Below are positions 2,341 to 52,764 of a stretch of 64,000 nt of DNA, in pieces. Every line of letters begins with the position of its first letter. Position 1 is the stretch's first letter. A program made the position numbers and the translations under genes. The DNA comes from Mytilus trossulus (taxonomy: Eukaryota), in contig NC_086376.1 of the NCBI RefSeq assembly GCF_036588685.1, forward strand, positions 77,417,630-77,481,629. The letters are read 5' to 3'. The notes beneath the pieces were generated by a model. That model was not told the origin of the DNA. It was given only the letters and a program-made list of their open reading frames with translations, and searched no databases.

Positions 2341-4874
2341 TTAAACTATAACCGTACATCATTACCAAATATTTTGCCTTTGAAGCACGTTTTGATATAT
2401 ACCTACCTAAGAACCATTCATGTGATGAAAATTCATTGGAAAGCAAATTATAGAAATAGCCTTTAGCAGCCTTTAACCAAAAACGACAAAAATAATAAAC
2501 AAGAAAGGTTTAGCATACTGTAACTATGCAGTATGTGGTACCAACTACATGGTGCTGTTATCATTTGAAGCAAATACTTTAAAAAAAAAAATCATTGTGT
2601 AGATGATATCTGTATTCATCAAATGGAGATACAATTAAAAGGTCTTACTGTCGTGGACAAGTCAGAAATAAATCAAGTATATCGTTTCGTTGCATGTCTC
2701 AGACACAACATATACTCATATATGACAAAAGTCGGTAGAATGGCGCAGACACAAACATTCACTGGCAATATGAATTTAAAACATTTTAACTGTAATTTAA
2801 ATTGTGAAATTATTACTTGGTAAATACCTTTTTTTATAAATATCATAATAATGATGACCTAAAATATGCATTTCTGCCTTATTTTACATAAGCAAAAGAA
2901 ACATTAATAATAACAGCATAACATTGTGAATTTTATTAGTTACGAACTGATATACTGTTTTATAAAATTTAAATTTATATTAAATCGATATTCGTCATCA
3001 TCTTATGACAGTAAATAGATGAAATATGTTGCTAAGTTAATTTTTTTTCAAACATAAATCAATTATCATATAGCTACATGTACGTATCCTTCGCATGGAT
3101 GGGTCTTCATTCCACTCCTACATGCTTTTATCGCTTGTACGACAACAGCTTGAATAAAACCATACATGTATTAGAATTGTTAAAAGTGCTGATCTGATCA
3201 AATTTGACGAATAAATTAATGAACTGTAATATCAAATTTTAAGAAGAATAAAATATGAAAACTTTTTTTTCTGAAGTGTCTATTATCTGTGAAATTTTAG
3301 AGAACACAAGGTATTTAAGATGCTCCGCCAAAAAAAGGGAACGGAGATTTTCCAAGAGTTTGAATAAAAAAAAACTTAAGATAGGATAATCAAAATTAAT
3401 ATGTTTTTTTTTTAACTTGGGTCAATGGTCAATGAAATATAGGGGTTGGGGAGTGGGAGTAATACGTTTGGGTGACAGTGAGCCTAAAACGAATTGCAAG
3501 ATTATATCTACGTAATACAACTTCAGTTTCAGCATACTGCTACATAATATGCTAAAAATTCGGAAACTTTTTTCCGATTTTTTTTTCGAAAATTGCAACG
3601 ATACTGGTTAAACTCGATTTTTTGTTTGTATTCATCATTTCGTGAAGTCGCAACAATTTATGTCGCAATTTTGTACAAAGCTCCAATATCAAAATAATCA
3701 ACTAAACGCACGCAATCATTTCTTAATTTACAGTGCAGGAAGGAGTACAGTAAAATAATAATTTTACATATAGCTGTTCCCTGTTCAGATTTGTTTATTA
3801 ATTATCTGATCAATACACATTTCCATATTGCTTATTTACATTAAAAGAATGTACAGAAAATTGATGAATTAATAAATACACTAACAAATGAAAGGGTAAA
3901 CCAAATGTGTTCACAAATATTACTATTTCAAATCACGAATATCATATCTACTTCCACCAAGAGCAGAGATACTCATTTAACATAACTGAACTAACGCTTC
4001 TTAATATAGATTCAACAAATGAAATCATAATAAAGAATAAACACATCTTTACATAGAATGAACTTATCTTTTAATAGTTTTTACTACAAAGTTGAATTGT
4101 ACTTTTTTAAGATAATTCACGCCGTTTGTTTTTGTTTTTTGTTTACATGTAATGACACAAGTTGAATAACCTTATTATAACATCTTCCTGGTACGTTCAT
4201 TGGACAACAAATTGTCCGATAAGCATAAAGACATGAGCAAATAGAATATTGAAAAAATTCTATTGTCACTGCTGGTTCAAATTTAGAGAATGTTGTTGCA
4301 GCATATTATGTTGATATTTCTAAGTATTACAAACTCAATGCAAGTTTTTAATTTCGTGTGCTGAAATTTTGTTTCTGGCATAACCAAATGAGACCGATCT
4401 AGGCCGCAAAAGGTCAAAAATGTCATAGGATTTAGATAAAAAAGAGTCAAATAAACAGAAAAATGCGTGTTGTCAACTTAACACGAAGATGTTGCAACTT
4501 TAAAATTAAAAAACTCACATTATGAATTAAAATAAATTGGTAAATTTTACAGTTTCATAAAATAATCTTGACAAAGGTTCATTGTCGAAAACTGAACGTA
4601 GAATAAAACTTTTGAAAAATATTTTGAAGAATTTAGAGTGACGAAAATATATTAATGAACAATTGAACCCGAACCTAACCTAGTGTTGAATTCCTTAGTC
4701 ATGAATTGGCATCGATACATTTAGGAGATTTGATATTACGACACTTCTAAGTTTTCTCTGGTCTTGTTATAAAACAACCTTGGACAATTTTATGATTACC
4801 GTTACTGGATTTACATTCAAAATTTTAAAGCATGTCATGAATATTTACACTGGCATTCCAAACTATGTTGTACT

Positions 4875-12407: not shown

Positions 12408-14064
12408 ATGGCAACATCCATTACATTTAAATGCGGCGTGTGTGATTCTCAGCATATCACAAAAGATGCAGAACATTGGTGCCCTGACTGTGAGGAAGGT
12501 TTTTGTTCTAACTGTCTTATTTTTCACAATTCGTCCAAGCTTTTACGAGGCCATGGTGTTATCTCCATAGAAAATTATAAAAAATTACCACAGTACATAA
12601 CAAGTATACGTCAGCACTGTCCAGACCATGATAGAAAGTATCAGAACTATTGTCAAATCCATGAGGTCCCATGTTGTCCATTCTGTATATCAACAAGCCA
12701 TAGCGAATGTAAAGGATTACAAGTCTTGGAAGAAGTCGTGAAGACATCGGAATTGTCCAGTCATTTCGAAGACATGAAACTGACTTTAAGAGATCTAGAG
12801 AATAACATTGATAGGATAAAGATTGACCGCGAGGAAAATCTGAAAAGTATTCTTGAACAGGGAAACAAAGTCAAGAGTGAAATCAAACAGGTACGCCAAC
12901 AAATAAATGCACACCTCGATAAACTTGAAGGGCTAGCACTTGCAAATTTAAAATCTACTGAAGATAAAGTCAAAAGCCAAATTGAAACTATATTAAGTAA
13001 ACTCTCCCACAGCAGTAGAGAAATCAAAGATGCAGAGAATATTATTTCAGCAATGACGGACTTTGCCTCAGATTTACACAGATTTCTTGGGAGGAAACAG
13101 ATTGAAGCAGAAGTATCAAAGTCAGAGAGGTCCGTCACTTCCTTAGTGGAAGATGGAAGTCTGCAACAAGTTACTCTGAACTGTAGTATTAATAGTAATG
13201 TTACTGAAATTTTATCCTCTATTTCCTCTTTTTGTACAATATCAACTGAATTAAATAATCCAAGTATTATTCTAAAGAAAGAAAAAGAAAAGCAGGCTCA
13301 GATCATGAGATTTCAACCTACAGCTCACAATTTTTACTTTACCGGAGGGAAAACAGCCTACCATTATAACGGGGTGTACAATAAACCAGTCAGGAAAAAT
13401 GGTATTTGCGGATTATACTTTCAACCAGCGACTTATTATTCTGAATGCTGATGGATCTGTAGATGGCGAAATACAACTAACAACACCATTTGATGTTACG
13501 TCTATTGACAATAGAAGTGTCGCGGTATTTCAACAAAAAGAGATTCAAATCATAGATTTGTCATCTAAAAGAGTAGAAAGGACGATTAAATTAAGCAAAA
13601 GTGTACAATCTGGGATTTCTTATGGACAGGATAAGTTATTATACCGTGGACCTGGAAAAAACATAAATATGATAAACCTGTCAGATGGCAGCCATCATAA
13701 TTCTGTCGATATAGACAAAACATTACAAGGTACGAACTATGTGGCATATTATAAAAATAATATATTTCTGACAAATAAGGCAAATAATACGGTCACATGC
13801 TACAAAGTTTCTGGGGAGAAAGTCTGGGAATTTAAAGATGAAACTGTTATCTATTCACCATGTGCCGTGTCATGTGACAAATACTCCAACGTTTACGTGG
13901 CATCATTTAGCAATGACAGCATTGTGGTAATATCACCCGATGGAATACAGAGTCGTACATTGACAAGTCAAAAGAATGGTTGGGCTATTGACGTTGATAA
14001 AGAAAGAAACATTTTAATAGTACCTGGTTTTTTTCAGAAAGTATTGTTAATGTTTACAAAATAA
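12408..14064 (+). pseudogene. TRIM-like protein (B-box1, B-box2, coiled coil, NHL-like beta-propeller; no RING), single coding exon with a frameshift near 13320
   Basis: CGVC...WCPDCEEGFCSNC...H...H (B-box1), CPDH...YCQIHEVPCCPFC...HSEC (B-box2), coiled coil and KEKQAQI motif. The reading then continues in another frame as QLTIFTLPEG...ITGCTINQSGKMVFAD into ORF 13399-14064 with propeller repeats (PFDVT, PCAVSCDKYSNVYVAS). AATAAA at 14173. Confidence 0.85.
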
Positions 14065-15660: not shown

Positions 15661-15782
15661 AGTAGTGGGAGTAGTGGGGGAAGTGGGGGTTCTGGCGACT
15701 TTTGTCTAATGTTAACCCTATGGGAAAAAGGTAGCCTCCTGAGAGGTAGCCTCCCGATGTGAGGCTAATTTTTATGACGTCA
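15661..15782 (+). repeat. Left terminal inverted repeat of the Polinton (with an extra 9-nt terminal reiteration)
   Basis: agtagtggg-agtagtgggggaagtgggggttctggcgac...aggtagcctcc x2...tgacgtca; reverse complement of 24577-24689. Confidence 0.95.
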
Positions 15783-16986
15783 ATTTAAGTTTGATGACAC
15801 TAATTAATTAAATTAATTACTTTGGAATATAAGGTCATTATTAAGTGTTATTAATTACGGCTAATTAATAAGCGTTATTGAATAAGTATAAATATATATT
15901 TTCTTTATATTTGATGAAAATTCCCAGTCTATAAATACATACACAGGAAAGCCCCACCTCAGTGTTAACTGATCATTATTGTATTAAATGTCTCTGGTAT
16001 TATTTATTCACCTACGGCTATTTATCTCTGATTATTAAATCAATATTGAAATCGTGTTTAAACTTGTCCAGTAGTGTACGTAATGACCTTTAACATGTTG
16101 ATACGTGTCAATAAATCTGCCCTATTGAAAAATTGCTTCGGTCTTTTGAAATCATTAAATCGTTATATTATTGACACTATTTAGTATAATGTATTTTAAT
16201 ATTTATGTTTGAAATGTTTAAAAGCATTTTATCTTGAATTAACACTGTACTAAATCACTGAAAGCGTTCATAAACTTATCTGTGTCATAATCAAGTTTGG
16301 ACTTGTCAATAATCCGATTTAATGTAGTCGCCATGTTGAAAATATTACAAACATTGTCGCGTTATGCAGTCTTTTGAAATAAGTAAATCATAATATTAAT
16401 TGAATTGAATAGTATTATTCTTACACAGATGAGATTTATCCAGTAGTTAATTTTAATGTGTTTGATGATACATACTGTTATATAAATACGTCTTTTGTTC
16501 AATATCCAACAATAATCCCTCCGTTATAATCATATATTTTACTCAGTAGTATAAATTGAAAACTTATTTGATTATTTCCTCGATCATATTCACTTTTCAA
16601 CTGAAATCCTTTTACTATAAAATGCCAAACTGTTAAACAATACATTTCAACAGTTTCTGTTGACCCCCAATAACCTGGTATGATTAAGTACATGGGTGAA
16701 TGACCATTAATGTAAACATGTCAAGTAAATATTATCAGATAATGATTATTTAAACTTTACTTTTTTATTAGGCTGTACTTAAACTTTTAAGTAATATTCA
16801 TTTTTGATAAACTTATTTATTAATAAATACTTTTATTTCAAATTATTCTGTATTACACATGTTACATCAGACTTCAGAAAATATAAATTTGCCTTGATAG
16901 CAAAGAAAAATACGTCTGATCGCTCCAACAGGTAAATTAGACTGAACTGAAAATCGATCGAAAAAATTTGCCGGATTTGAAATTAA

Positions 16987-17100
16987 CCAATCAGATTACG
17001 TAAATTACGGAATTTCCACAATTTATGAAATTTCTGCTATATAAACGCTGTGAATTGCGGGGATAGCACAGTCTTATCGATGACACTCTAAAGGTGAAAT
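16987..17100 (+). promoter_or_regulatory. Pol II promoter of the Polinton polB transcript
   Basis: CCAAT at 16987, TTACGTAA palindrome at 16996, GGAATTTCC at 17009, TATATAAA at 17038, Inr-like CAGT with A at 17070 (32 nt from TATA). Splice donor candidates at 17094, 17136 and 17141; acceptor ttttcacttttcAG at 17771-17772. Confidence 0.65.
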
Positions 17101-17357
17101 CAAGTTTATTTTGGCAGTATCTTAAGGATTTAAAGGTTTGGTATGGCTAATAATTTGTTTATTTTAAACATTTTTTAAAATTGAATAGTAAAGGATTATA
17201 TGATATAAGTTAAAGTTTTCTTGATAATTTTGTTTTTTAAATTTCAAACTTATTTTATGAATAACAATTAAATGGAATTGACAGATGCATATCTTTAGAA
17301 TAAAGAAATAAAAGGGGGAGGTTGTATTTCAATTTTGAGTTCTCGAAAGTTTGAAGT

Positions 17358-17685
17358 AGTCTCCTGCACTGGTAAGGTGTACTGACTTAGGGCAGTGTCA
17401 TTTAGCTAACAATGGAGAGGAAGTGTCATGTGGCATGCCCCGCTATAGTCAGGAAGACCTCTCCGACCAAAACCTTTGCAGTCTTGCTTAACTGCGAGAG
17501 CAGCTCTGTTTCCAGTGATGGAAATGTTGACGGGCGGTGACTACTTTGGCGAAAGCCTTAGTCAAACATTCTTGTATATCAATCAGATCGTTATTCATAT
17601 CAGTATCAAGACTGGGAACCCATACGGTCGGTAGACTGAGGAGTCGTTTTTCCGACCCGTGGGCGAGTACCAGTGGCGATAGGCT
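17358..17685 (+). ncRNA. Unidentified highly structured RNA (closed multi-helix fold, GNRA tetraloops, pseudoknot) in the Polinton polB leader/intron
   Basis: Closing helix CACUGGUA 17367-74 / UACCAGUG 17668-75. Hairpins ctgc-GAGA-gcag, tttcca-GUGA-tggaaa and ggc-GAAA-gcc. Long-range helix cagtcttg/caagactg. Loop GGAGAGG (17414-20) is complementary to CCUCUCC (17458-64). Forms a GC-rich island in an AT-rich leader. Confidence 0.7.
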
Positions 17686-17803
17686 CCTTTGATGTGAATA
17701 ATAACTGGTTGTCCGTATCATATTATAAGGAATAATAAAAATGCCTATATTGAATACACTTTCACTTTTCAGAAGAAAAAAAAAAAAAAAAAGAAGAAAA
17801 AAG

Positions 17804-20800
17804 ATGGAACCAGCATCGAAAAAAATAAAGATGGCAAAATCTCCAATTAAATGTGGTGTATGCGGAAAATCGTTTTCCCATAAAGAGAGTTTGATGCGCC
17901 ATAAGAGATCGGTTCATACTGAAACGAAATGGCATTGCCCAACCTGTGATGTAGTATTTTCAAGAAAAGACAACTACCAACGCCATAAGCGAAACCATGA
18001 TAAACAACCAGTCCAAAATGGTGCTGGTGTTACTACGACTAGTGCAGAAACAAATGAAAAGACGGATCCATGCAACTTCAAAGCGCTCAATGGAACCGTT
18101 GAAACACATTCGATCGATGCAAAAGGATTGAATAAATTTGATCCAATGTCATTCCTGAAAAGCCAGTATGATGATGTTAAAGATGTCATCAAGCGTAAAA
18201 TTATAGAAAGAGGTGGATTGAAGTGGTATCTATCCATGAAGGTTAAAATGAGCAGACGAAAAGAAGATGCCATAGAAACTGCAGAGCCGCATTTCCGGGG
18301 GAAATGCCAGACCAGTTTAAAATTGGAGGATATCGAAGCCGGATTAAAGGAATCTATCAAAAAGATGTATACATCTTTCATTGAATATCAGAGACAAGGA
18401 AGCAATTGGACTGTGGATAAAGTGGTAAATCTTACCATACACATGGCACGGTACAGACCCTTAAAAGGCTCAAGTTATATTCCACTTCCAATTAAACTCA
18501 GATCAAAACATGCCATTATCAATGTCAAAAATAGAGACAGCAAATGTTTCATGTGGTCGATTTTGGCAGCATTGAACCCAGCAAAACGTGATGCAGAGAG
18601 AGTTTGGAAATACAAGGAACACACTTCAAGTTTAAAGTTTGATACCATCATGTTTCCTGTGAAATTAGCCGACATACCCAAGTTCGAAAAACAGAACACA
18701 ATATCTATCAACGTGTTTGGGTTTAACAAAGGCGAAGTATTCCCTATACACATTTCAAAACATCGATTTGAACAGCATGTTAATCTACTCATGATATCGG
18801 ACAACAAGAAGTCACATTTCTGCTGGATTAAGGATCTCAATCGGTTATTAGGGGACCAGCATAGCCATCGCGCACGACATTTTCACTGTCCATACTGCTT
18901 ACACGGATTTACCAAAGAAAGAATATTAAGCAACCACCTACCATACTGCCAGACCCATGGACCCCAAAAAATTGAACTACCAACTGAAGACAACAAGTGG
19001 TTACATTATAAGTACATTCGTAAACAGCTTAAGGTTCCATACGTTATTTATGCAGATTTTGAGTGCCTTCAAGAACCAATAGTTGATAGTAAAGAATGTG
19101 ATCAGAAGACGAAAAAGACTACCAAACACATACCGTGTGGCTTTGCTTACAAAGTGGTAGGTCTGACACCTGAAACATCAAATGAACCAGTAGTTTATCG
19201 GGGTGCTGATGCTACTGATAAATTTGTGGAGTGCATGATAAAAGAACAGGAAGAAATAGAACAACGATTTAAGCATTGCGAACCCATGATCATGACTGGA
19301 AGTGATTGGCAATCCTTTAAGAAGGCAACCCTGTGTCACATATGTAAAAAATAATTAGCAGACATAAAAGTTCGAGATCATTGTCACGTGACTGGAAAAT
19401 TTCGAGGGGCTGCTCATAACGACTGTAATATTAATTACAAGTTTACGGGTCGAATTCCAGTTGTGTTTCATAACCTTAGAGGATACGATAGCCATTTAAT
19501 AATGCAAGCTATTGGAAAAGTTGAAGGGAAAAAGCTGAATTGCATTGCTAATAATATGGAAAAGTATATATCTTTTTCATTGGGATGTATGGATTTTATA
19601 GACTCGCTCCAGTTCATGTCTTCATCTTTACAAAAACTTGTAGAAAACCTTGCCAAAGAAGGTTCTAGCAAATTTCGACACATGACAAGCCACTTTGAAG
19701 AAGAAAAAATACACCTGCTTCTGCGAAAACAAGTATACCCATACGAGTATTTTGATTCCGAGGCAAAGTTTTTAGAATCTCAACTACCCCCGATTGAATC
19801 ATTTTACAGTACACTATCGGGAGAAAGTATAACCAAACTGGATTATGCACATGCACAACACGTATGGCAATTGTTTAACATACAGAATCTCGGACAGTAT
19901 CACGATCTATACGTACTATCAGATGTTCTTGCATTAGCCGACGTCTTTGAAAATTTCAGGGAGATCTGCCTCAACTACTATGGACTGGACGCTGCACATT
20001 TTTATACAACACCCGGTTTAGCCTGGCAAGCTGCCTTGAAAATGACAGGTGTCAAGTTGGAATTACTCACTGACATAGACATGCATTTGTTTATAGAGAA
20101 AGGCTTAAGAGGGGGCATATCAATGATAACCCATCGCCATGCCAAAGCTAACAATAAACATGTACCAAACTACAATCCAAATCAACCCATTAATCACGTG
20201 ATGTACCTAGATGCCAACAACCTATACGGATGGGCCATGTCACAAGCGCTTCCAGTTGAAGGTTTCAGATGGCTCAACGATTCTGAAATTGAGAACCTAC
20301 ACATAGGTGACGTTGAAGATGACAGTAAAAATGGTTTTATATTAGAAGTTGATTTAGAATATCCTAAGGAACTACACGACGACCACAACGAATATCCATT
20401 AGCTCCAGAAAAATTAAAAGTTACAAATGATATGTTATCACCCTATGCAGAAAAGCTATTGGATGATTTAAACTTAAAAGGAACATCGACAGAAAAATTG
20501 ATACCAAATTTACATCCAAAGCAAAAATACGTGGTACATTACAGAAATTTAAAACTCTACTTATCACTTGGAATGAGACTTACAAAGATCCATAGAGTCA
20601 TGACATTTGAACAGCGACCCTGGTTAAAGACATATATTGATTTCGATACAGAGAAGAGAAAGCTTGCAACAAATGAGTTCGAGAAGGATTTTTTCAAACT
20701 CATGAATAATGCAGTCTTTGGAAAGACGATGGAAAATTTAAGGAAGAGAACAGATATAAAACTTTTGAATGACCAATCAAAGGCCAGAAAATTAATCAGC

Positions 20801-21490
20801 AAACCAACATTTCATGCCTTCAAAATATTCAACGACGACTTGGTGGCTGTGCATATGTTGAAGCAACGATTATACTTAAACAGACCCATCTACGTGGGAT
20901 TCACTATACTCGATTTGTCAAAGACACTTATGTACGATTTCCATTATAATTACATGAAAGATAAATATGGATCTAGAGCAACACTCTTGTTTACAGACAC
21001 CGACTCGCTATGCTACAGCGTCAACACTGATGATATATATCAAGATATGTTGGAAGACAGAGACTTGTTTGATACGTCAGGGTATAACCCCGAACATCGG
21101 CTTTATAGCACTTTAAATAAAAAGGTGTTAGGAAAGATGAAAGACGAGACACATGGTATTCCCATACAGGAATTTGTTGGTCTCAAGTCAAAGATGTACT
21201 CATTGATATATGAGGAGAATAAAACAATCTGCGAGAAGAAGACAGCGAAGGGTATAAAGAAGAGTGTGATCAAACATGACACGATCAAACATGACACAAG
21301 ACACGAACATTATAAACAAAGTTTATTCAACAAAGAAATCCACATGTCTACCATGACACAGATCCGTTCATATGACCATACGTTATATAATATATCAATC
21401 AACAAACTGGGCTTATCCCCTTATGATGATAAAAGATACTTTCTAGATGATGGGATACAAAGTTTGGCTTATGGACATTGGAGAATATAA
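17804..21490 (+). pseudogene. polB: Protein-primed family B DNA polymerase polyprotein (2x C2H2 ZnF, terminal-protein/OTU-like region, EndoVII-like Zn motif, 3'-5' exonuclease, pPolB), one in-frame nonsense codon at 19352
   Basis: ORFs 17741-19354 and 19388-21490 are in the same frame, joined across one TAA (CHICKK*LADIKVRDHCHVTGKFRGAAHNDCN). Motifs: YADFE, FHNLRGYDSH, YLDANNLYGWAM, KLMNNAVFGKT, FTDTDSL. Probable start is ATG 17804 (MEPASKKIK, NLS-like) after the splice acceptor. 15-bp tandem duplication at 21268-21297 (IKHDT x2). Confidence 0.93.
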
Positions 21491-21568
21491 TCAGGATGAA
21501 AATCAATATTTAAATCACTCTACGTCTGTCATTCGAAGGAAGCGGACGTGTTTTAACAACTCTCAAAG

Positions 21569-23038
21569 ATGTCGAATACTTGTCCAGATTGTGGTTCAGA
21601 ATTTTCGAGAAAAGATGTCATGTTGCGACACCAAAGAAACAAACACAGAATCAATGATGCATATCCACCGCCGCCGCCAAAGAATGTGATACTACATCAT
21701 CCGTTCACTATGATGCTGGCTGGACCTACTGGTTCAGGTAAGACGTTTTGGATGAAAACTTTATTGGAGAGAGCACGGACTATGATTACACCATCACCAG
21801 AGAGGATAATATGGTGCTATAAACGGTGGCAGCCATTATTTAGTGAAATGCAACAGACCATTAAAAACATTTTGTTTGTTCAAGGTTTACCTGAAAATTT
21901 GAATGATGACTCATTCATGGACTCTAGATTTCCAAGTTTAATCATCCTAGACGATTTAATGAGAGACGTCACTAATAGTAAGGATGTGTGTGAACTCTTT
22001 GTGGAGGGTAGCCATCACAGGAACCTTAGCGTAGCTTGTATAATGCAAAACGCATTCTCGAAGGGAAAGGAGAGTCGAACCATGACCATCAATAGTCAGT
22101 ATATAGTCCTATTCAAAAACCCACGTGATCAAGTTGGGCCAGCCATATTTGCTAGACAGATGTATCCTAATAACCCGAAGACATTCATGAATAAATATAA
22201 AGAGGGGACACAACAACCATATGGGAGTCTATTCATTGATCTGAAACAGAATACACCGGAAGACGACAGACTAAAACTTAATATATTTGAAAGCAAGAAC
22301 ATGGTTGGTGGGGGTGATTCTAAAGAGTATATAAGCAGAAAAGAACTTGAACCACATCAGTTTGGAGAATCATTTCAAAGTGAGCAGACGTATTTACCAG
22401 ACGATAAAGAAATCATGCCTTCATGTGATGATTGCGGTGTAGTCTTTGAAAGCGTTCCTGATTTAGCTAGACATATGAATAAGTGGTGCCCGGAAAATAA
22501 TGATTTAAAGAGAAAAAGGGAAATTGAGGACGAAGACATACCCTCAAAGAAGTCTCGTGTAAACGAAATTGATATAGAAGGTGGAGAAGATATGGCTTTT
22601 ATAAAATTAGCTGAACTTGCCAGAGAGGCAAATGCAGATATATGGGAGGAAAAGGTTGATAAATACATGGATGGTGACATGAATGAAGACCACGCCATAA
22701 GTAAGGCCAATCGCAAATTAAAAGACGAGGATATGGGCCAGTTTTTGTCCAGATATAGCAGTTTAGTTGAGTATTTACTACAGTTACAAAATGGTAAACT
22801 ACATGGCAAAGTCATGCATATGATTACAGAATTAGTTAACGATGGCATGGACACTGTAAGAGCCACTAAAGTAGCCATCAGGAAATATAAACCTATGTTG
22901 GAAAGCTATCTGGATGAAGCCATTGAAAACGAAACAAATAATGATGGTTCTGAAAGTGACAATAGCATTGATGACGATGAAGAGGAAGAGGAGGAGGAGG
23001 AGGAGGAGGATGAAGACGATGAAAGTTCAACTATATAA
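21569..23038 (+). CDS. A32/FtsK-like DNA packaging ATPase with N-terminal C2H2 zinc finger, in frame with a C-terminal ZnF/acidic-tail module
   Basis: CPDC...H...H finger, Walker A GPTGSGKT, Walker B LIILDD, SHHRNLS and MQN motifs typical of Polinton/poxvirus A32-like ATPases. C-terminal CDDC...H...C finger, KRKR NLS-like stretch and poly-E/D tail. The ORF is intact. Confidence 0.9.
   Translation: MSNTCPDCGSEFSRKDVMLRHQRNKHRINDAYPPPPPKNVILHHPFTMMLAGPTGSGKTFWMKTLLERARTMITPSPERIIWCYKRWQPLFSEMQQTIKNILFVQGLPENLNDDSFMDSRFPSLIILDDLMRDVTNSKDVCELFVEGSHHRNLSVACIMQNAFSKGKESRTMTINSQYIVLFKNPRDQVGPAIFARQMYPNNPKTFMNKYKEGTQQPYGSLFIDLKQNTPEDDRLKLNIFESKNMVGGGDSKEYISRKELEPHQFGESFQSEQTYLPDDKEIMPSCDDCGVVFESVPDLARHMNKWCPENNDLKRKREIEDEDIPSKKSRVNEIDIEGGEDMAFIKLAELAREANADIWEEKVDKYMDGDMNEDHAISKANRKLKDEDMGQFLSRYSSLVEYLLQLQNGKLHGKVMHMITELVNDGMDTVRATKVAIRKYKPMLESYLDEAIENETNNDGSESDNSIDDDEEEEEEEEEEDEDDESSTI
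22328..22417 (+). promoter_or_regulatory. Putative internal promoter inside the ATPase ORF
   Basis: TATATAAG at 22328, TCAGTT Inr with A at 22359 (31 nt spacing), in-frame ATG at 22415 (MPSCDDCG...). Confidence 0.55.
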
Positions 23039-23094
23039 ATATGAGAACGTTGTCCTCTGTATATCATTCTATATTCATCATTCCATGTGAAAAG

Positions 23095-24200
23095 ATGGCC
23101 TCTTGGGAAAAGTACTTGAGAACTATTTATTACAATCCAGCTAACCCAGCGAGTTTTGCAGGGCCTGATAAACTTTACAGATTTGTTCGAACAGATGGAA
23201 AATTCGTTCTCAGTAAATATAAAATACGAAAATGGCTACAACGACAGGAACCATATAGTTTACAAAGACCCTTAAAAAGGTCGTTTAAGCGGAACAGAGT
23301 TATCGTTATTGGAATAGACGACCAATGGGATATCGATTTGATGGACATGTCTAAATTCTCGAAATTTAACAGTGGATTCAATTTCGTATTGGTGGTTATT
23401 GACATTTTCTCCAAATATGTATGGCTAAGACCTCTAAAGAATAAGAAAGGCGAATCCGTGGCGAATGCTTTGAAACACGTTTTATCAGAAGAAGATCACC
23501 AAACAGAATAAGAACAGATAAAGGACAAGAATTCAGATCAAGATTAGTAGAATCTCTCCTAAAACAGAGAAATATTCAACATTTATTTGCACAAAATACT
23601 GAAATCAAAGCTAATTACTTTGAAAGAGTTATCAAGACTATTAAATCAAAAATCATGAGATTTATCACCAGTAAGCAGTCATATGATTATGTGGATAACT
23701 TACAGAATTTTGCTAACAGCTACAATAAGACCTTCCATAGAACGATTGCCATGGCACCAGATAAAGTCACCATATCTAAAGAGACCAACCTTTGGTGGAA
23801 AATGTATTGGCCGAAAAGATTACAACCTAAGACAGAGAAAGTACGAAAACCTTTCCGTTTCAAAATCGGTGATAAAGTTCGGATTACATACATGAGAAAT
23901 CCTTTTACCAGGGAATACGATGAGAAATGGAGCGGAGAGATATTTAAAATATCTCAAAGAATATTACGTGGTGGACTCCCAGTTTATCGACTTATTGATT
24001 TTCAAAACGAAGAAATTTCAGGAACCTTCTACCATTCAGAAGTACAAAAAGTGGATGTTCGGGAAGACGATATGTGGAAAGTTGAAAAAATCCTCAAAAC
24101 AGAAGGCAAAGGACCCAACAAACAATATTATGTGAAATAGTTACACTGGCCAAAGAAATTCAATTCTTGGATTAAAGCTCGCGATTTATCTAATATCTGA
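23095..24200 (+). pseudogene. int: Retroviral-like (RVE/DDE) integrase with C-terminal chromodomain; 1-bp deletion at ~23491 and nonsense codon at 24138
   Basis: MASWEKYL...QWDIDLMD...VIDIFSKY, then after the frameshift RIRTDKGQEF...KANYFERVIKTIK, YNKTFHRTI, FKIGDKVRI and the chromodomain WKVEKIL...YYVK*LHWPKKFNSWI (TGG>TAG). TATATAAA at 23032 and TCATTC at 23064 lie upstream. Confidence 0.92.
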
Positions 24201-24324
24201 GAGAGTTTACTACCCCGGAAAGACTAACTTCAGGTCTCGACAGTTTACACCCCTGCACGAAAGATAGCATACTGTTGGCCCTTTCGTAAGGTTATAGATA
24301 CTGTTGAGTGGTAGACAATTCTCT
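24200..24324 (+). ncRNA. Structured RNA element directly after the integrase stop codon (3' UTR)
   Basis: Nested helices: agagagtt/aattctct, ctacc/ggtag, ctcgacagt/actgttgag, acgaaag/ctttcgt. Confidence 0.5.
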
Positions 24325-24576
24325 AATACTTTTATCTCGATGTATAAAATAGTTGTATATAATTTTGTTATATTGTAAAGGCATCATGTGGGTGGCTCTC
24401 CGACCCATGTTTGTCTGATTTGACGGAGATATTAAATATTGTACACACCATTGTTATTATTATTACTAATGTGGTACCGAGAAGCAGAAACAAATACACA
24501 CACACATACACACACACCTACACACATCTGTACATTTTACAATAAAAACAATTAACTAATGTCATAATACCCAAAA

Positions 24577-24689
24577 TGACGTCATAAAAATTAGCCTCAC
24601 ATCGGGAGGCTACCTCTCAGGAGGCTACCCTTTTCCCATAGGGTTAACATTAGACAAAAGTCGCCAGAACCCCCACTTCCCCCACTACT
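24577..24689 (-). repeat. Right terminal inverted repeat of the Polinton
   Basis: tgacgtcataaaaattagcctcac...cccccactact followed by the TSD ataaat. Preceded by a (CA)n tract (~24497-24527) and AATAAA (24541). Confidence 0.95.
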
Positions 24690-47800: not shown

Positions 47801-50800
47801 ACCAAATATTCAACGACACTGCAGAATACATGTAACGGTTAAATCGGAGATACTATAAGTTCTCTTTACACTTGTGGCATCGATTCATAGCAATATTGAG
47901 ACCGAATTGCTGTTCGAAAGCGTAGTTTATTTTCAAAGTATATGAGCTTACCCGGGCTATTGCTTTTTGTCTAATGTTAAGTGTATAAAAAAGCAAACAA
48001 GTCTAAACAGAAAGAATGATGACGCTTAATCCCTTGTTTTGGCGTCGATAGTATCCTCCTATTTGTGCATTGAATAACAATTAATTGAAACAACTCTTTC
48101 TATTGTTAGGTAGGATTTTTTGTCCCCAGCCAATAAACCTCCATTTTCTAGTGGCAGTTCAAATTACCGAGCCTCGACATACAAGCCAACCAACTTTATT
48201 TTTCAAGAGGGTCTTTTTTTATTTGTATGTGTAAAACGTCTATACAGTTTAGAAACCCTCATATCTGTTGACAATTAGATCCCGTCTCCATTTTCCCTGC
48301 TATTTTAATCTCAAGTATAGAGACTTGCTATGAAAAGTAGGAATCAAGTTATAGGAACAGATACCAGGCGTAATATTTGATACGCTAGACGTCCTTTTTG
48401 TCTACTTAAGAAATATAAATGTTAATCGAATCAAAACCTTTCGCAAAATCTAAAAAGAAGTTAAACGACCCTTTGATATCTTTTTTTTTCTCTATTAAAG
48501 AGCGCCAAAAAACGAAAATAAAATTAAAATATATGCCAGAAAAACGGCTTATGCAACCTACGTCTATAGAGTTTTAAATAACAAAACGTTATTTTTACTA
48601 AGCGTTTGATTTGTAATGTAATTTTAATTCGCGAAAGAGTATGCGTTCGTTTTTAAATATATGGTATTATCAAGTACTAGTAAGTTAGACTTATGTATTG
48701 CTGTTCTACAATACCAATACCCATAATGCATGTGCTGTTTCTAACATTATTTCTTTATGAGTCTTCAAGTGATCCTTTTGTTCTTCCATTCAAAGGGATG
48801 AAGAATGTTTATCGCTCAATTAAAGCGGGAAACGTGTCAGTACTTGCGATCTATCTCTATTAATTTTGTTTATCTCCTTTGAAAATATGAGGTAGGCTTA
48901 AAGCATGACTTACATGTGATACTTGATTAAAAGTAACAAATCTGAACTTGTAACCTACACATACCAACTGTACAGTTAAAATACATTGTTCATATTATAA
49001 ATACAAATGAAGTGTCTTTAATAATTCATCTTGCGTCATATAGACAGTATATAGCTTTTAACAAGACATATCTGTGCGATAGTATCTTTTATTAACCACA
49101 TGCATTTATTTTAATTATGCTACACGTGTTTCTGCCATTATTTTCCTCAAGTAGGCTTAAGGCAACAACTGGAAAGGTAACTTGTAACAGTAGGGGGAAC
49201 CTTGACATAAGGAGATGAAACCTAGGTGGTAATGGAAAAAAATAACAATCAACAACAAAACACTTTGGCAAACGAAAGAATCATACCAAGAACTAATGAG
49301 CTCCGAAAAGGTAACCCTGCATGAGTATTGATCTAACGAAAGCCAGAAAATGTATTGGTTGATTGATTGTTGTACGCTTTGCATCCAGTGGCAAAAACAT
49401 GTATTTCACGGATATACAAGACACAAACCCATAAACAATGAATACAAAAAGTACAACATGTAATATGTATCGACTGGGATGAATGTTGAGAACTTCTGAT
49501 TAATAGTCTCGATTGAACAAGAGGAATATATTGGATAGGGACATTCATTTTGTCTTACAACAGTCCAACTACGGACCCATGAAAGAGTTGTTGCGAGGGC
49601 TTATAACGAAACAGATGTAGCGCATACTCATGTTGATGTTTATATATCTTTAATTTTCAGGAATGGACAGATCCTCGATTACAATGGGATCCTAAAGAAT
49701 ACCAAGGAATTAAAATGACGCATATGCCATCTGACCATCTCTGGCGTCCAGATATCGTTCTTTATAACAAGTATTTATTATAATGATAAAATAATGCAGA
49801 AGCTATGTTTAAATATTTGTTGATGTTTTATTCTAGGACACGAAAAATATGTATAGCATAGTTGCCACACAATCTGAGTCCTTAAATATAACACATATAT
49901 TCAGATGGCAACATAAAGCAGAACTTAAAGTCACAAAATTATTATCAAAGATACCAGGCTTATAATGTATTACGCCAGACGCGCGTTTCGTCTACATAAT
50001 ATTCATCAGATAAAAAAAAGTTAGAAATCCAAACAAATATAAAGTGGGAGAGCATTGCAATTGAGGACCCAAAATTCCAAAACGTTGTGCCAAATACGGC
50101 TAAGGTAATCTTTGCCTGGGATCAGAAAAGCCTTTTAATTTCGATACCTTACACTTTTGCATTTGATATCTTTAGCTTTTTTTTTTAAATTTAATCAGCT
50201 GTAAAGTTCATTGGTACTAAACTTTTTTGATTCTTTTACCTTAGTGATAAACAAGCTGCATTGTAGAGAAAGAAATACAATCATGACTGATTCAGAACTT
50301 AATAAATTTCGTGCACCCGAAGCTCTTTTCTAAACGTCAATGCTTTGAAAGCTAAGACTATATAAGAACCGCCATAGTTGGTGGGCTATACGATCAAGGG
50401 AGACCTAGTATTTTACAGTTACTTTTGTTTGCTTGCAGTAATGCTGTCTACATATTCCATTATACTATATCAACTAAAAAGTCTCTTGAAAAAATTGTAC
50501 TTATCTTATGCCACATCTTATTTATATATAGATTTTACCATTAATTATAGATTAGCAAAGGAGTAAGTTATTTTTACGTTAATATACATAATAGATATAA
50601 AAAAAAAAAGCATTACAAGGTATATAATAAATAGCAAGCTTGTTTTTTACTACGTTTCTGATCTTTTAACATACTTACTTACAGTGCTGATGGAGATTTT
50701 GTCATTACTTTGCTAACCAAAGCCAAAGTATATTTCGATGGAATGATAATCTGGGAACCTCCTGTCATCTATAAGAGTTCATGTCCTATCGACGTGGAAT

Positions 50801-52764
50801 ATTTCCCCTTTGATATGCAGGAATGTTTCATGAAATTCTCATCGTGGACATATGATGGACAGGAGCTTGACTTGCAACATGTGTGTGATGCTCAATCAAT
50901 TATACTACAAACTGCACCAAATGAACCGAAAGAAAAGTTGATTATCGGAGGAGTAGATATTCACGATTATCATCAAAATGTTGAATGGGATATTATTAAT
51001 GTAACTGCTAAGCGAAAGGAAAAATTGTATCCATGTTGTCCGAACGCACCGTATCCTTATCTTTTATTTAATATTACTCTTCGAAGACGTACTTTATTTT
51101 ACTCGCTCAATTTAATCATGCCATGTGTGTCTATATCATGTTTAACCGTCTTGGTATTTTATCTTCCATCAGACAGTGGAGAAAAGATCACTTTATCAAT
51201 ATCAATATTGCTGGCGTTGACTGTGTTTTTCTTGCTGCTTTCAGACATCAATCCTCCAACTTCATTTGTGATACCTCTAATAGGCAAATATTTACTTTTT
51301 ACTATGATAGTGGTGACTATGTCTATATTTTTAACTGTTTATACATTAGGAATCCATTTCCGTCGACCAGCAACACATACAATGAGTCCATGGGTCAGAC
51401 GTGTGTTCACGGAAATTTTACCGAGAGTTTTATTAATGCGCAGACCCGATATGGAACATATGCGTAAAAGAGTGCCTTTAAGAACTTGTAATGGGATAGA
51501 AATGCGTGATGTCAGGGATATACTTTCTGCTTCACAAGCTTCAGAAAGTACATATGAAAATATTCGTCCTAACAAGGAACTAAAACAGTATCCAAAAGAA
51601 ATCACAGAGGCTTTTGAAGGAGTTATTTCAATAGCTGATCACCTAAAGACGGAGGACCAGGAGAATTCTGTAAGTAAACTAATCGGAAACATCAATTATA
51701 GGGAAAATACAATTTACATTTTTGAAACCATCCGACTAACATACATGTACGTGCAGTAAAGATATATGATGTTTGAGCTACCTGATATTTTGTGAGAATT
51801 CCAACAGCCCAACTTCATTTTTAAAAGTTAAACCAAACCCGATATATAACTAGATGTTGACTTAGTATCGTCACAAGAAAATCGCGCAGATTTCAAACAA
51901 GAGACATTGTATAAACAATGCTATCAAAACCAAATTATTTAAATGAATAGAGAACCACGGTCAAAGTTCTATGCTTTAGAGAAGGCAATGTATCTCAATC
52001 CTCAGTATGTCTAGATCTCTGATAAAGACGAAAATAATTAATAATTTCAAATGACATGCTAGTATACACTTTATAAATCGCGTGTGTACCTACAATAGGA
52101 ACACTCATTCTTAAGCATTTGAAAGCCAGGGATGCTTAAATTCGCTTCTACAGCAGAAGCCGATTGACCAAGAACAAAACAAACAAAACTTTCACTGTAC
52201 GAGCTGTAAACTTAGGTTATCCGTTGTATCTTGGTTTATGAAAGGTGGGTTTTGAAAAAAGTATATATAAAAAAGCACTGAAAACTGTGCTGAAGATAAA
52301 TTAGGGGACTTAAAGCTCATCATCAGTATCGACATAGTGCTACTAAATCTAAGCAATTTATAGATTTCGTGCGGGCGCAGATCTTACTCGATTTTCTTTC
52401 ATCATGAAAACTGAAACTTAAACATTTAAAAGTCATGGTACGTCAATACAAAAAAAAAAAAAAGATTTTTTTACACACATTAACATTTGTGATTTTAAAA
52501 AAAAATTGGTTATGTTGGCTTTGATAAGAAATATTTTTTTCTAGTATAATTTTCTATAAATAATACCATTAATTGTGTTTTACTTTTTAGGAAGCACGTG
52601 ACTGGAAGTATATTGCCATGGTGATGGACCGTTTGTTTCTTTATATTTTTACAACTGCTTGTGTATGTGGAACACTCAGTATATTTTTATATGCACCTTC
52701 CCTTTATGATTCACGCCCACCTTTAAGCTCTAACATACGGGCAGAAGGGGCGTGTAAGTATTAA
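38680..52764 (+). CDS. Nicotinic acetylcholine receptor alpha subunit (cation-selective Cys-loop channel), 5 coding exons, ~500 aa
   Basis: Exons 38680-38868, 47694-47738, 49661-49770, 50685-51669 and 52591-52764, all GT-AG and in phase. Contains a signal peptide, [20 protein letters not shown], Cys-loop [20 protein letters not shown], loop C YPCC, GEK-TM2 and [14 protein letters not shown] (TM4). Confidence 0.95.
39650..40225. repeat. Degenerate ~60-bp minisatellite in nAChR intron 1
   Basis: Recurrent agaaggcaatatcatgacatc...catttctat, about 9 copies. Confidence 0.8.
44400..44590. repeat. Degenerate ~30-bp minisatellite
   Basis: Recurrent aaaagcaaatat(t/c)atcgcaattca. Confidence 0.65.
47694..47738 (+). 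CDS. nAChR alpha exon 2 (45 nt)
   Basis: ttgtAG|[15 protein letters not shown]|GT; conserved 45-nt nAChR exon. Confidence 0.93.
49661..49770 (+). CDS. nAChR alpha exon 3 (110 nt)
   Basis: ttttcAG|[36 protein letters not shown]-aa|GT; conserved 110-nt exon. Confidence 0.93.
49941..50150 (-). repeat. Partial retrozyme-like repeat copy with damaged hammerhead, in nAChR intron 3
   Basis: tacgccagacgcgcgtttcgtctacataatattcatcag and gaggacccaaaattccaaaacgttgtgccaaatacggctaagg match the 58283-58575 copy in reverse. Confidence 0.75.
50685..51669 (+). CDS. nAChR alpha exon 4 (Cys-loop, loop C, TM1-TM3, intracellular loop)
   Basis: Covers ORF 50710-51759 of the track; acceptor ttacAG at 50683-84, donor TCT|GTAAGT at 51670. 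Confidence 0.95.
52591..52764 (+). CDS. nAChR alpha exon 5 (TM4 and C-terminus)
   Basis: ttttAG|[45 protein letters not shown]...*. Confidence 0.9.

Follow-up and report, generated by a model that had tools for sequence, protein, structure and literature searches.

A 367-nt stretch in the 5' leader of the DNA polymerase B gene (polB) of a mussel Polinton is almost certainly a structured RNA maintained by selection, because it is conserved beyond its surroundings and its fold is kept through paired mutations. It occupies positions 17345-17711 (+) of the window, the whole 64,000-nt stretch of DNA analysed here. This island is under purifying selection, bears compensatory changes, folds into two domains, lies between conserved splice signals and has an intact copy at a Polinton-free site. 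An earlier note on this DNA had proposed a structured, pseudoknotted RNA on the polB sense strand of the Polinton leader, and the selection and compensatory changes support that proposal.

To our knowledge, large new structured RNAs are rare in animals. Polintons have been treated as protein-only DNA elements, and the island is a structured RNA that matches no Rfam family. No structured RNA is described for Polintons in the accessible parts of the literature searched, whose supplementary annotations could mention one, and the available part of PMC11071296 makes no mention of non-coding RNA.

Copies in the genome and purifying selection

A DNA search of the genome with the island returned 16 matches at 14 places, 13 of which belong to the window's Polinton family or its relics. 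Eight full-length family copies each carry a colinear 367-nt island, four further copies are partial, and one decayed island (L016) lies beside polB remnants. At the remaining place (L013) the island alone matches, at 72% identity.

Pairwise divergence was calculated for seven of the eight full-length copies, one near-duplicate being omitted. The island diverges by 2.8% with zero gaps, compared with 12.7% and 19.2% in the two flanking parts of the intron and 9.1, 6.3 and 22.5% at polB codon positions 1, 2 and 3, respectively. The predicted promoter and exon 1 diverge by 3.1% and 4.2%. As judged from these alignments, the island is under strong purifying selection, since its divergence lies far below that of the flanking intron and below that of polB positions 2 and 3. 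The constraint thus exceeds that on the second codon positions of the adjoining polymerase. The island is also GC-rich, as had been noted before, at 47% against 21% and 26% in the flanking intron.

Limits, fold and covariation

Homology to L013 starts and stops exactly at the outer helices, and the limits 17345-17711 were taken from this homology. The ~330-nt limits originally proposed (17358-17685) gave a marginal folding z-score of -1.98 and had to be revised; with the corrected limits the z-score against shuffles is -3.18, with 0 of 60 shuffles as good. The L013 fold reaches -5.50 on the + strand (-4.73 in another run), and domain 2 alone scores -3.84 in the window and -6.50 in L013.

Independent minimum free energy (MFE) folds of the window and L013 sequences give the same two domains, with 91 pairs in common out of 116 and 120. 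When the fold from one lineage was tested on the other, 100/113 and 103/119 pairs were kept (null 77 and 82), including 14 and 16 compensatory pairs against a null of ~4, and 0 of 10,000 shuffles scored as high. Both sides have changed in 21 of 114 curated pairs and pairing is retained in 19 of these, while one-sided changes produce 12 G-U and a single A-C; the curated pairs were chosen on the + strand with sight of both sequences, which biases these counts towards the model. Automated counts of the pair changes agree with them. All of the covariation comes from one divergent sequence, L013. Conserved structure with compensatory changes, a feature of viral stable intronic RNAs (sisRNAs), is thus found in two lineages.

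The decayed copy L016 serves as a control. Over 17604-17689 it keeps 16 of 24 pairs with 0 compensatory changes (identity 61/83), whereas L013 keeps 25 of 27 with 4/4 compensatory (identity 64/86). At equal divergence, the decayed copy thus does not hold on to the fold as L013 does. Lower energies and the G-U bias favour the + strand over the - strand in these models, although the z-scores of L013 do not separate the strands (-5.74 on the - strand). Unpaired positions are as conserved as paired ones between the window and L013 (88/129 vs 170/228).

Architecture of the RNA

Domain 1 (17345-17571, +) is defined by the agreement of the independent MFE folds and by pair-by-pair changes. It is closed by P1 (17345-54/17562-71) and continues into P2 (17355-61/17539-45), where pairing is 8/8 in L013 and one pair-breaking change is common to three of the eight family copies. 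A small variable side hairpin (17548-57) makes a three-way junction. P2, P3 (17364-73/17472-81), a variable hairpin (17492-503) and a GUGA-capped hairpin (17504-34) with an invariant bulge and linker meet in a four-way junction. The GUGA-capped stem had been recognised earlier as tttcca-GTGA-tggaaa and is kept 6/6 in L013. Its tetraloop is GNRA in both lineages; the description of the RNA as GNRA-rich otherwise overreached, with only one of the three loops conserved. Positions 17521-42 form the longest run invariant between the lineages, and 11 nt of it are complementary to what we take to be a universally conserved small-subunit rRNA segment, a complement expected by chance about 0.16 times by estimate. 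Reading this complement as a U43/18S antisense element is not supported by the SNORD43 and C-box checks described below.

The long arm of domain 1 (17376-17468, +) comprises P3b (17376-78/17466-68), P4 (17382-87/17447-52) and P5 (17390-17407/17422-40). P4 corresponds to the ctgact/agtcag pairing of the earlier note and is kept 6/6 in L013 with three double changes. In predicted pseudoknot 1 (+) the loop at the apex of this arm, 17414-20, pairs with 17458-64 at its base. This GGAGAGG/CCTCTCC match, also seen earlier, is preserved 7/7 in L013, though it is invariant and so without covariation, and a single change breaks it in two of the eight family copies.

Domain 2 (17580-17711, +) is a long hairpin supported by z-scores and double changes. 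Its helices are 17580-86/17705-11, 17590-602/17690-702 (four double changes), 17604-07/17678-81, 17612-15/17670-73, 17619-23/17659-63 and 17626-31/17652-57. An internal loop, GAA/AGUA, is invariant between the lineages and presumably loop-E-like. In the earlier note GGTCGG (17626-31) was given two CCGACC partners; that at 17652 stands, with 6/6 pairs in L013, while that at 17463 keeps 5/6 and is a weaker possible alternative. Predicted pseudoknot 2 (+) joins the apical strand 17638-45 to 17682-89 at the base of the domain 2 hairpin, and its duplex is 8/8 in both lineages with two double changes. It is partly excluded by a hairpin (17634-37/17642-45), previously listed as gact/agtc, which holds 4/4 in both lineages including L013, also with two double changes. 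One 4-nt strand differs between the lineages at three positions, and the two strands with which it can alternatively pair differ correspondingly. The competing hairpin is worth -4.0 and -1.6 kcal/mol, compared with -12.5 and -11.2 kcal/mol for the pseudoknot 2 duplex. Both pseudoknots would be expected to form in three dimensions.

All complementarities listed in the earlier note occur in the window as written, but several were not retained in L013. The closing helix CACTGGTA/TACCAGTG keeps 1/8 pairs and the second pseudoknot as then drawn (ACGGG/CCCGT) 2/5, and the 8-bp helix cagtcttg/caagactg is lost through deletion or change of the 3' half of its 5' strand. The end pairing agtct/aggct (4/5) and the helix tgacta/tagtca (5/6) fare better, but are outcompeted by the better covarying P2 and pseudoknot 2, each 8/8.

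The carrier Polinton

The window covers C4:77417630-77481629 of the 1.3-Gb genome, and proteins 83-94% identical to Mytilus entries point to a Mytilus mussel. The element that carries the island spans 9 kb (15661-24689) and is identified as a Polinton/Maverick by its terminal inverted repeats (TIRs), 6-bp target duplication, protein-primed polymerase, integrase and ATPase. Its left TIR (15661-15818, +) comprises 149 nt from 15670 beginning AGTAGT, with a 9-nt duplication of the end, and its right TIR (24541-24689, -) is also 149 nt. The target-site duplication ATAAAT flanks both ends (15655-60 and 24690-95). The protein-primed polB gene (17804-21490, +) encodes two N-terminal C2H2 zinc fingers and is interrupted between 19354 and 19502 in the window copy. 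It is followed by an A32-like packaging ATPase gene with C2H2 zinc fingers (21569-23038, +; Pox_A32 E 5e-6) and by an rve integrase gene (23041-24200, +), also interrupted in the window copy. Capsid and protease genes are absent, with only polB, ATPase and integrase matching the 36 ORFs of five other Polinton loci in the same genome, a result found in three copies. By its gene content the Polinton carrying the island is capsid-less. Relative to the core genes of Polintons/Mavericks, as given in the accessible part of bioRxiv 2023.08.22.554363, it shares the AGTAGT start of the TIRs, the 6-bp target duplication, the protein-primed polymerase, the rve integrase and the packaging ATPase. It differs in its 9-kb size, the lack of capsid and protease genes, and the presence of a structured RNA.

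The same 9-kb capsid-less family also occurs on C1, C5, C6, C7, C8 and C11, and shares the genome with several capsid-encoding Polinton families, of which it is possibly a satellite. A remnant of a small leftward gene of ~70-80 codons, probably spliced, lies at 15960-16334 (-) and is interrupted in all seven copies examined. Elsewhere in the genome, polB-like ORFs of 1380-1720 codons (L025-L028) apparently lack adjoining Polinton genes. The window further contains a host B-box/TRIM-like gene (12408-14064), broken into two ORFs and including a beta-propeller part, and an intron-poor ligand-gated ion channel ORF (50743-51759).

The solo copy

L013 (C10:14034523-14034883) is a single copy with intact structure. 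No Polinton DNA or protein match was found within 30-80 kb of it, its flanks show no significant similarity to the element, and its upstream flank is unique in the genome. A search for a target-site duplication returned a flank repeat at chance level (3817 of 20000). A senataxin-like start codon follows on the same strand, 11 kb downstream of L013. Since similarity stops at the outer helices and L013 is without Polinton context, the fold is independent of the polB context. L013 may be a host RNA gene that was captured by the Polinton, or a domesticated or recently moved copy; an intact solo copy points either to a host RNA gene not yet described or to domestication of a mobile RNA.

Short exon-like units and a local tandem repeat lie before L013, and a LINE fragment in reverse orientation lies after it. 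Two type I hammerhead ribozyme matches of 30-33 bits, just under the cut-off, lie 355 nt apart (L158:3881-3924 and 4236-4279), 6 kb upstream of L013, and probably mark a Penelope- or retrozyme-type repeat.

Predicted intron position and expression

A predicted Pol II promoter and short non-coding exon 1 (16961-17140, +) carry a CCAAT box at 16987-91 and a TATA box at 17038-45. The predicted 632-nt 5'-UTR intron of polB that follows (17141-17772, +) runs from GT to a pyrimidine tract and CAG, and contains the structured RNA. The TATA box, donor (17141) and acceptor (17772) pointed out in the earlier note are all in the sequence and conserved in copies, save that one copy has GC at the donor. 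In two divergent elements, L017 and L068, acceptor-like sites also precede polB. From the end of domain 2, which is also the end of the island, it is 61 nt to the acceptor and 93 nt to the polB AUG. Six AUGs lie within the island, and the C8 copies have a different pyrimidine tract. At the start of exon 2 (17773-17803) an A-rich run is longer in the window and C5 copies than in others.

Expression was assessed in contigs of runs X1, X2 and X4, which are presumed to be RNA with library type not given, and which can neither prove absence nor address a non-polyadenylated intron. X2 and X4 contigs cover the polB exon from 17809 (depth 130-510 and 10-45, respectively) with none over the island, and X1 holds a single 216-nt island contig at depth 4.7 vs 10.2 for polB. 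In the contigs of these three runs there was no splice junction read, exon 1 was uncovered and the island was not seen as a discrete RNA; raw run X22 gave 2 reads. These observations argue that the island is not in the main polB mRNA.

Searches for known families and homologues

Rfam 15 covariance models gave no match to the island at E ≤ 10 in the window or L013 and none at E ≤ 1 over the element, so the island is absent from Rfam. The sole match in the window was a 16-nt minus-strand chance match of 10.8 bits. Motifs for ribozymes, snoRNAs, telomerase RNA and Pol III genes were compared with the consensus of each class. Together with the Rfam scan they uphold the earlier statement that the diagnostic cores of hammerhead, HDV, twister, group I/II and RNase P/MRP RNAs are lacking. 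A hammerhead-like CUGAGGA occurs at 17636 with no GAAA following it, and L013 does not retain the word. HDV-like and twister ribozymes had no Rfam match, and were also compared by eye for helix order and core. For group I introns and lariat-capping ribozymes, the GACUA/UAGUC-like words of the window are all absent from L013 and Rfam gave no match, while the 5' GUGYG and domain V triad of group II introns are absent in both lineages. The CR-I and CR-V motifs of RNase P and RNase MRP RNAs are absent, and the 7SK model does not match the island. L013 is none of these three RNAs, as the genome's own genes lie elsewhere (RNase P RNA at C8:9495694, RNase MRP at C3:3738695, and three 7SK genes at C7:58105257, 65312971 and 66516044). 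Neither lineage has a 6-nt TTAGGG-template word of telomerase RNA on the + strand. There is no intact C box for a U43-like C/D snoRNA, the C-like word covarying inside a hairpin, and the SNORD43 model did not match the island, a weak search given that it found no host U43 over the cut-off either. As for H/ACA snoRNAs, the ANANNA at the 17576 linker is not kept in L013 and no ACA follows the 3' helix. The island contains no A or B box of the kind found in Pol III viral RNAs (VA, EBER).

Nor is the island a decayed exon, a SINE or a MITE. Substitutions fall 36/27/36 by codon position (p 0.44), with frame-breaking indels, and a 77-aa minus-strand ORF of the island is absent in L013. Of the 14 places with a match, 13 are in the Polinton family or its relics, and the L013 flank repeat is no better than chance.

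No homologue was found outside the mussel genome in the collections searched (viral, metagenome polB, prokaryote, phage and plasmid). Nhmmer and both covariance models found none in 19 viral and 80 metagenome polB loci, which share ≤47% polB identity, in many cases lack long 5' flanks, and on the metagenome side represent 80 of 546 loci. Exact patterns in viral contigs (2 chance, 25 and 5 matches) and prokaryote genomes (65) yielded none that pass the models, and blastn gave 0 matches in phages and one 39-nt chance match in plasmids. A PDB search returned zinc fingers only. Within the mussel genome the covariance models found no homologue at 20 other polB loci, with sensitivity slightly lowered in model R2, whose outer 4-bp helix is one column out of register. 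Own-genome pattern matches were examined as loci at 15 of 25, 30 of 91 and 30 of 281 places, in a search by patterns and DNA match that very divergent copies could escape. An all-against-all blastn of polB upstream regions showed no comparable island on inspection. When 1 kb upstream of polB was scanned for folding at 22 other loci, low-scoring windows were scattered, and the island itself reached just -2.5 in the 140-nt scan, too little for the comparison to be informative. The closest polB relatives are those of Gigantopelta (63% identity), Haliotis (58%) and Pecten (55%), and L017 (60-76%) has lost its 5' region.

Two unrelated repeats were encountered. A 975-nt repeat with inverted ends occurs singly or in head-to-tail arrays at L343-L348 (C1:59.18 Mb) and many other sites, and seven matches of one 10-mer spaced 35-41 kb apart at C3:36154518-36381358 suggest a large tandem segmental array.

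Function and origin

The best reading, and a tentative one, is an intron-released, trans-acting structured RNA that serves as scaffold or decoy. It is preferred because of the sealed ends, the sharp homology limits, the predicted intronic position and survival outside the element. The 367-nt RNA would likely leave the polB pre-mRNA by splicing, within the 5'-UTR intron, and is predicted to persist as a discrete stable molecule because long helices seal both ends and a pseudoknot clamps each arm. Viral stable introns, VA RNAs and EBERs suggest by analogy that the free RNA may bind proteins in trans, as a scaffold or decoy, to the benefit of the element during polB expression. Among the functions offered in the earlier note, a stable intronic RNA is thus favoured. 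Herpesvirus stable introns, in which a hairpin lies close to the branch point, offer a precedent (PMC4378190, in the part available). Several observations weigh against this reading: accumulation of the island was not seen in the X1, X2 and X4 contigs, pseudoknot 1 is without covariation, the P2 break is common to three of the eight copies, covariation derives from one divergent sequence, and L013 folds as well on the - strand.

Dual covariation around pseudoknot 2, of a 4-nt strand with both alternative partners, fits a switch at least as well as a static scaffold. The RNA could alternate between pseudoknot 2 and the competing hairpin in response to a ligand or to zinc-finger proteins encoded by the element, and in that way regulate removal of the intron and with it the dose of polB. 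Splicing is regulated by intronic riboswitches in fungi and plants; in the mussel RNA the hairpin loop could act as a toehold, domain 2 ends close to the acceptor, and both polB and the ATPase carry C2H2 fingers. However, the competing hairpin is weak, inspection of the copies gave no conserved pairing between the RNA and a splice site, the pyrimidine tract varies in the C8 copies, and the solo copy is intact without polB; such a cis-acting role is unlikely. Context-independent function, which would account for the solo copy, is offered by a new class of ribozyme, self-cleaving or branching/capping, that would process the intron or the 5' end of polB mRNA. Long stretches that are invariant and in part unpaired, at 17521-42 and next to pseudoknot 1 and the GAA/AGUA loop, would suit a ribozyme, as would the equal conservation of unpaired and paired positions, and apex-to-base pseudoknots recall twister topology. 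Even so, no Rfam ribozyme matches at E up to 10, the island lacks or fails to conserve the core motifs of hammerhead, group I, group II and RNase P, and the conserved splice signals already account for leader removal; a ribozyme is quite unlikely. It is possible, if doubtful, that the island represents a large eukaryotic RNA machine of a new class. Two arms, each folded back in a pseudoknot, would make up this ribozyme or two-state switch, which would have passed between a mussel chromosome and the capsid-less Polinton and would regulate or aid the gene for the protein-primed DNA polymerase. If true, Polintons would have their first functional structured RNA, and molluscs possibly a host RNA gene that had gone unrecognised.

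Capture of such a host gene, with L013 as the undescribed original and the Polinton lineage keeping its copy as a mimic, concerns origin and is compatible with the trans-acting reading, while overlapping others. The single copy, unique flanks, intact structure and position upstream of the senataxin-like start codon speak for it, as does the lack of the RNA in every other Polinton family searched; yet a sister Polinton could equally be the source of L013, as a copy that moved recently or was domesticated, and L013 is not 7SK, RNase MRP or RNase P, so capture is somewhat unlikely. The retention of a packaging-type ATPase without capsid or protease genes, in a genome that also harbours capsid-encoding Polintons, would suit a pRNA-like packaging or replication cofactor using the ATPase with helper capsids, and the apex-to-base pairings could form between molecules. 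This proposal, or its variant in which the structure is selected in single-stranded DNA during replication, is improbable, as a solo copy exists without the element, and the G-U bias, the retained GNRA loop and the more favourable energies of the + strand speak for RNA rather than DNA. Proximity to the polB AUG, together with a multi-way junction and loop-E-like motif resembling parts of IRESs, would fit an IRES or 5'-UTR translation element for polB, as the earlier note had suggested. That function is highly improbable given the position between conserved donor and acceptor, the six internal AUGs, the lack of any Rfam IRES match, and the absence of the island from polB-covering contigs in two RNA-like runs (X2 and X4).

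Comparison with known systems

In twister, as in the mussel RNA, the apical loop folds back to pair with a basal internal loop, on its 3' strand. The mussel RNA has arms several times longer, twister core nucleotides are not conserved in it and Rfam gives no match. The lariat-capping ribozyme GIR1 is likewise a structured RNA upstream of a mobile element's enzyme gene, but the mussel RNA has neither the group I P3/P7 core order nor a conserved G-site motif, and no Rfam match.

Conserved, covarying intronic hairpins and a hairpin near the branch point characterise herpesvirus stable introns, according to the accessible part of PMC4378190. The HSV-1 LAT intron, the CMV 5/7.2-kb introns and EBV sisRNA-1/-2 (PMC4378190, same part) resemble the mussel RNA in being non-coding and borne by a dsDNA virus or virus-like element, and lie in introns, as is predicted for the mussel RNA. 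Viral stable introns described there also share compensatory hairpins and a stable hairpin shortly before the 3' splice site. In contrast, the mussel RNA is compact, with two domains, two predicted pseudoknots and a four-way junction, is known from sequence alone with its accumulation predicted, resides in an invertebrate Polinton and has a solo copy outside the element. If it accumulates, it would resemble viral stable intronic RNAs, with a fold in no catalogued family. Adenovirus VA RNA and the EBV EBERs (PMC4378190, same part) are also small and highly structured with a plausible decoy role, and protein-primed replication further links adenovirus to the Polinton. Those are ~160-170-nt Pol III transcripts, however, whereas the mussel RNA is 367 nt, lacks an A or B box and lies in a predicted Pol II intron. 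With it, non-coding RNAs of the kinds known from viruses (VA, EBER, stable introns) would be extended to Polintons, and it is small enough for direct transcription, probing and assay.
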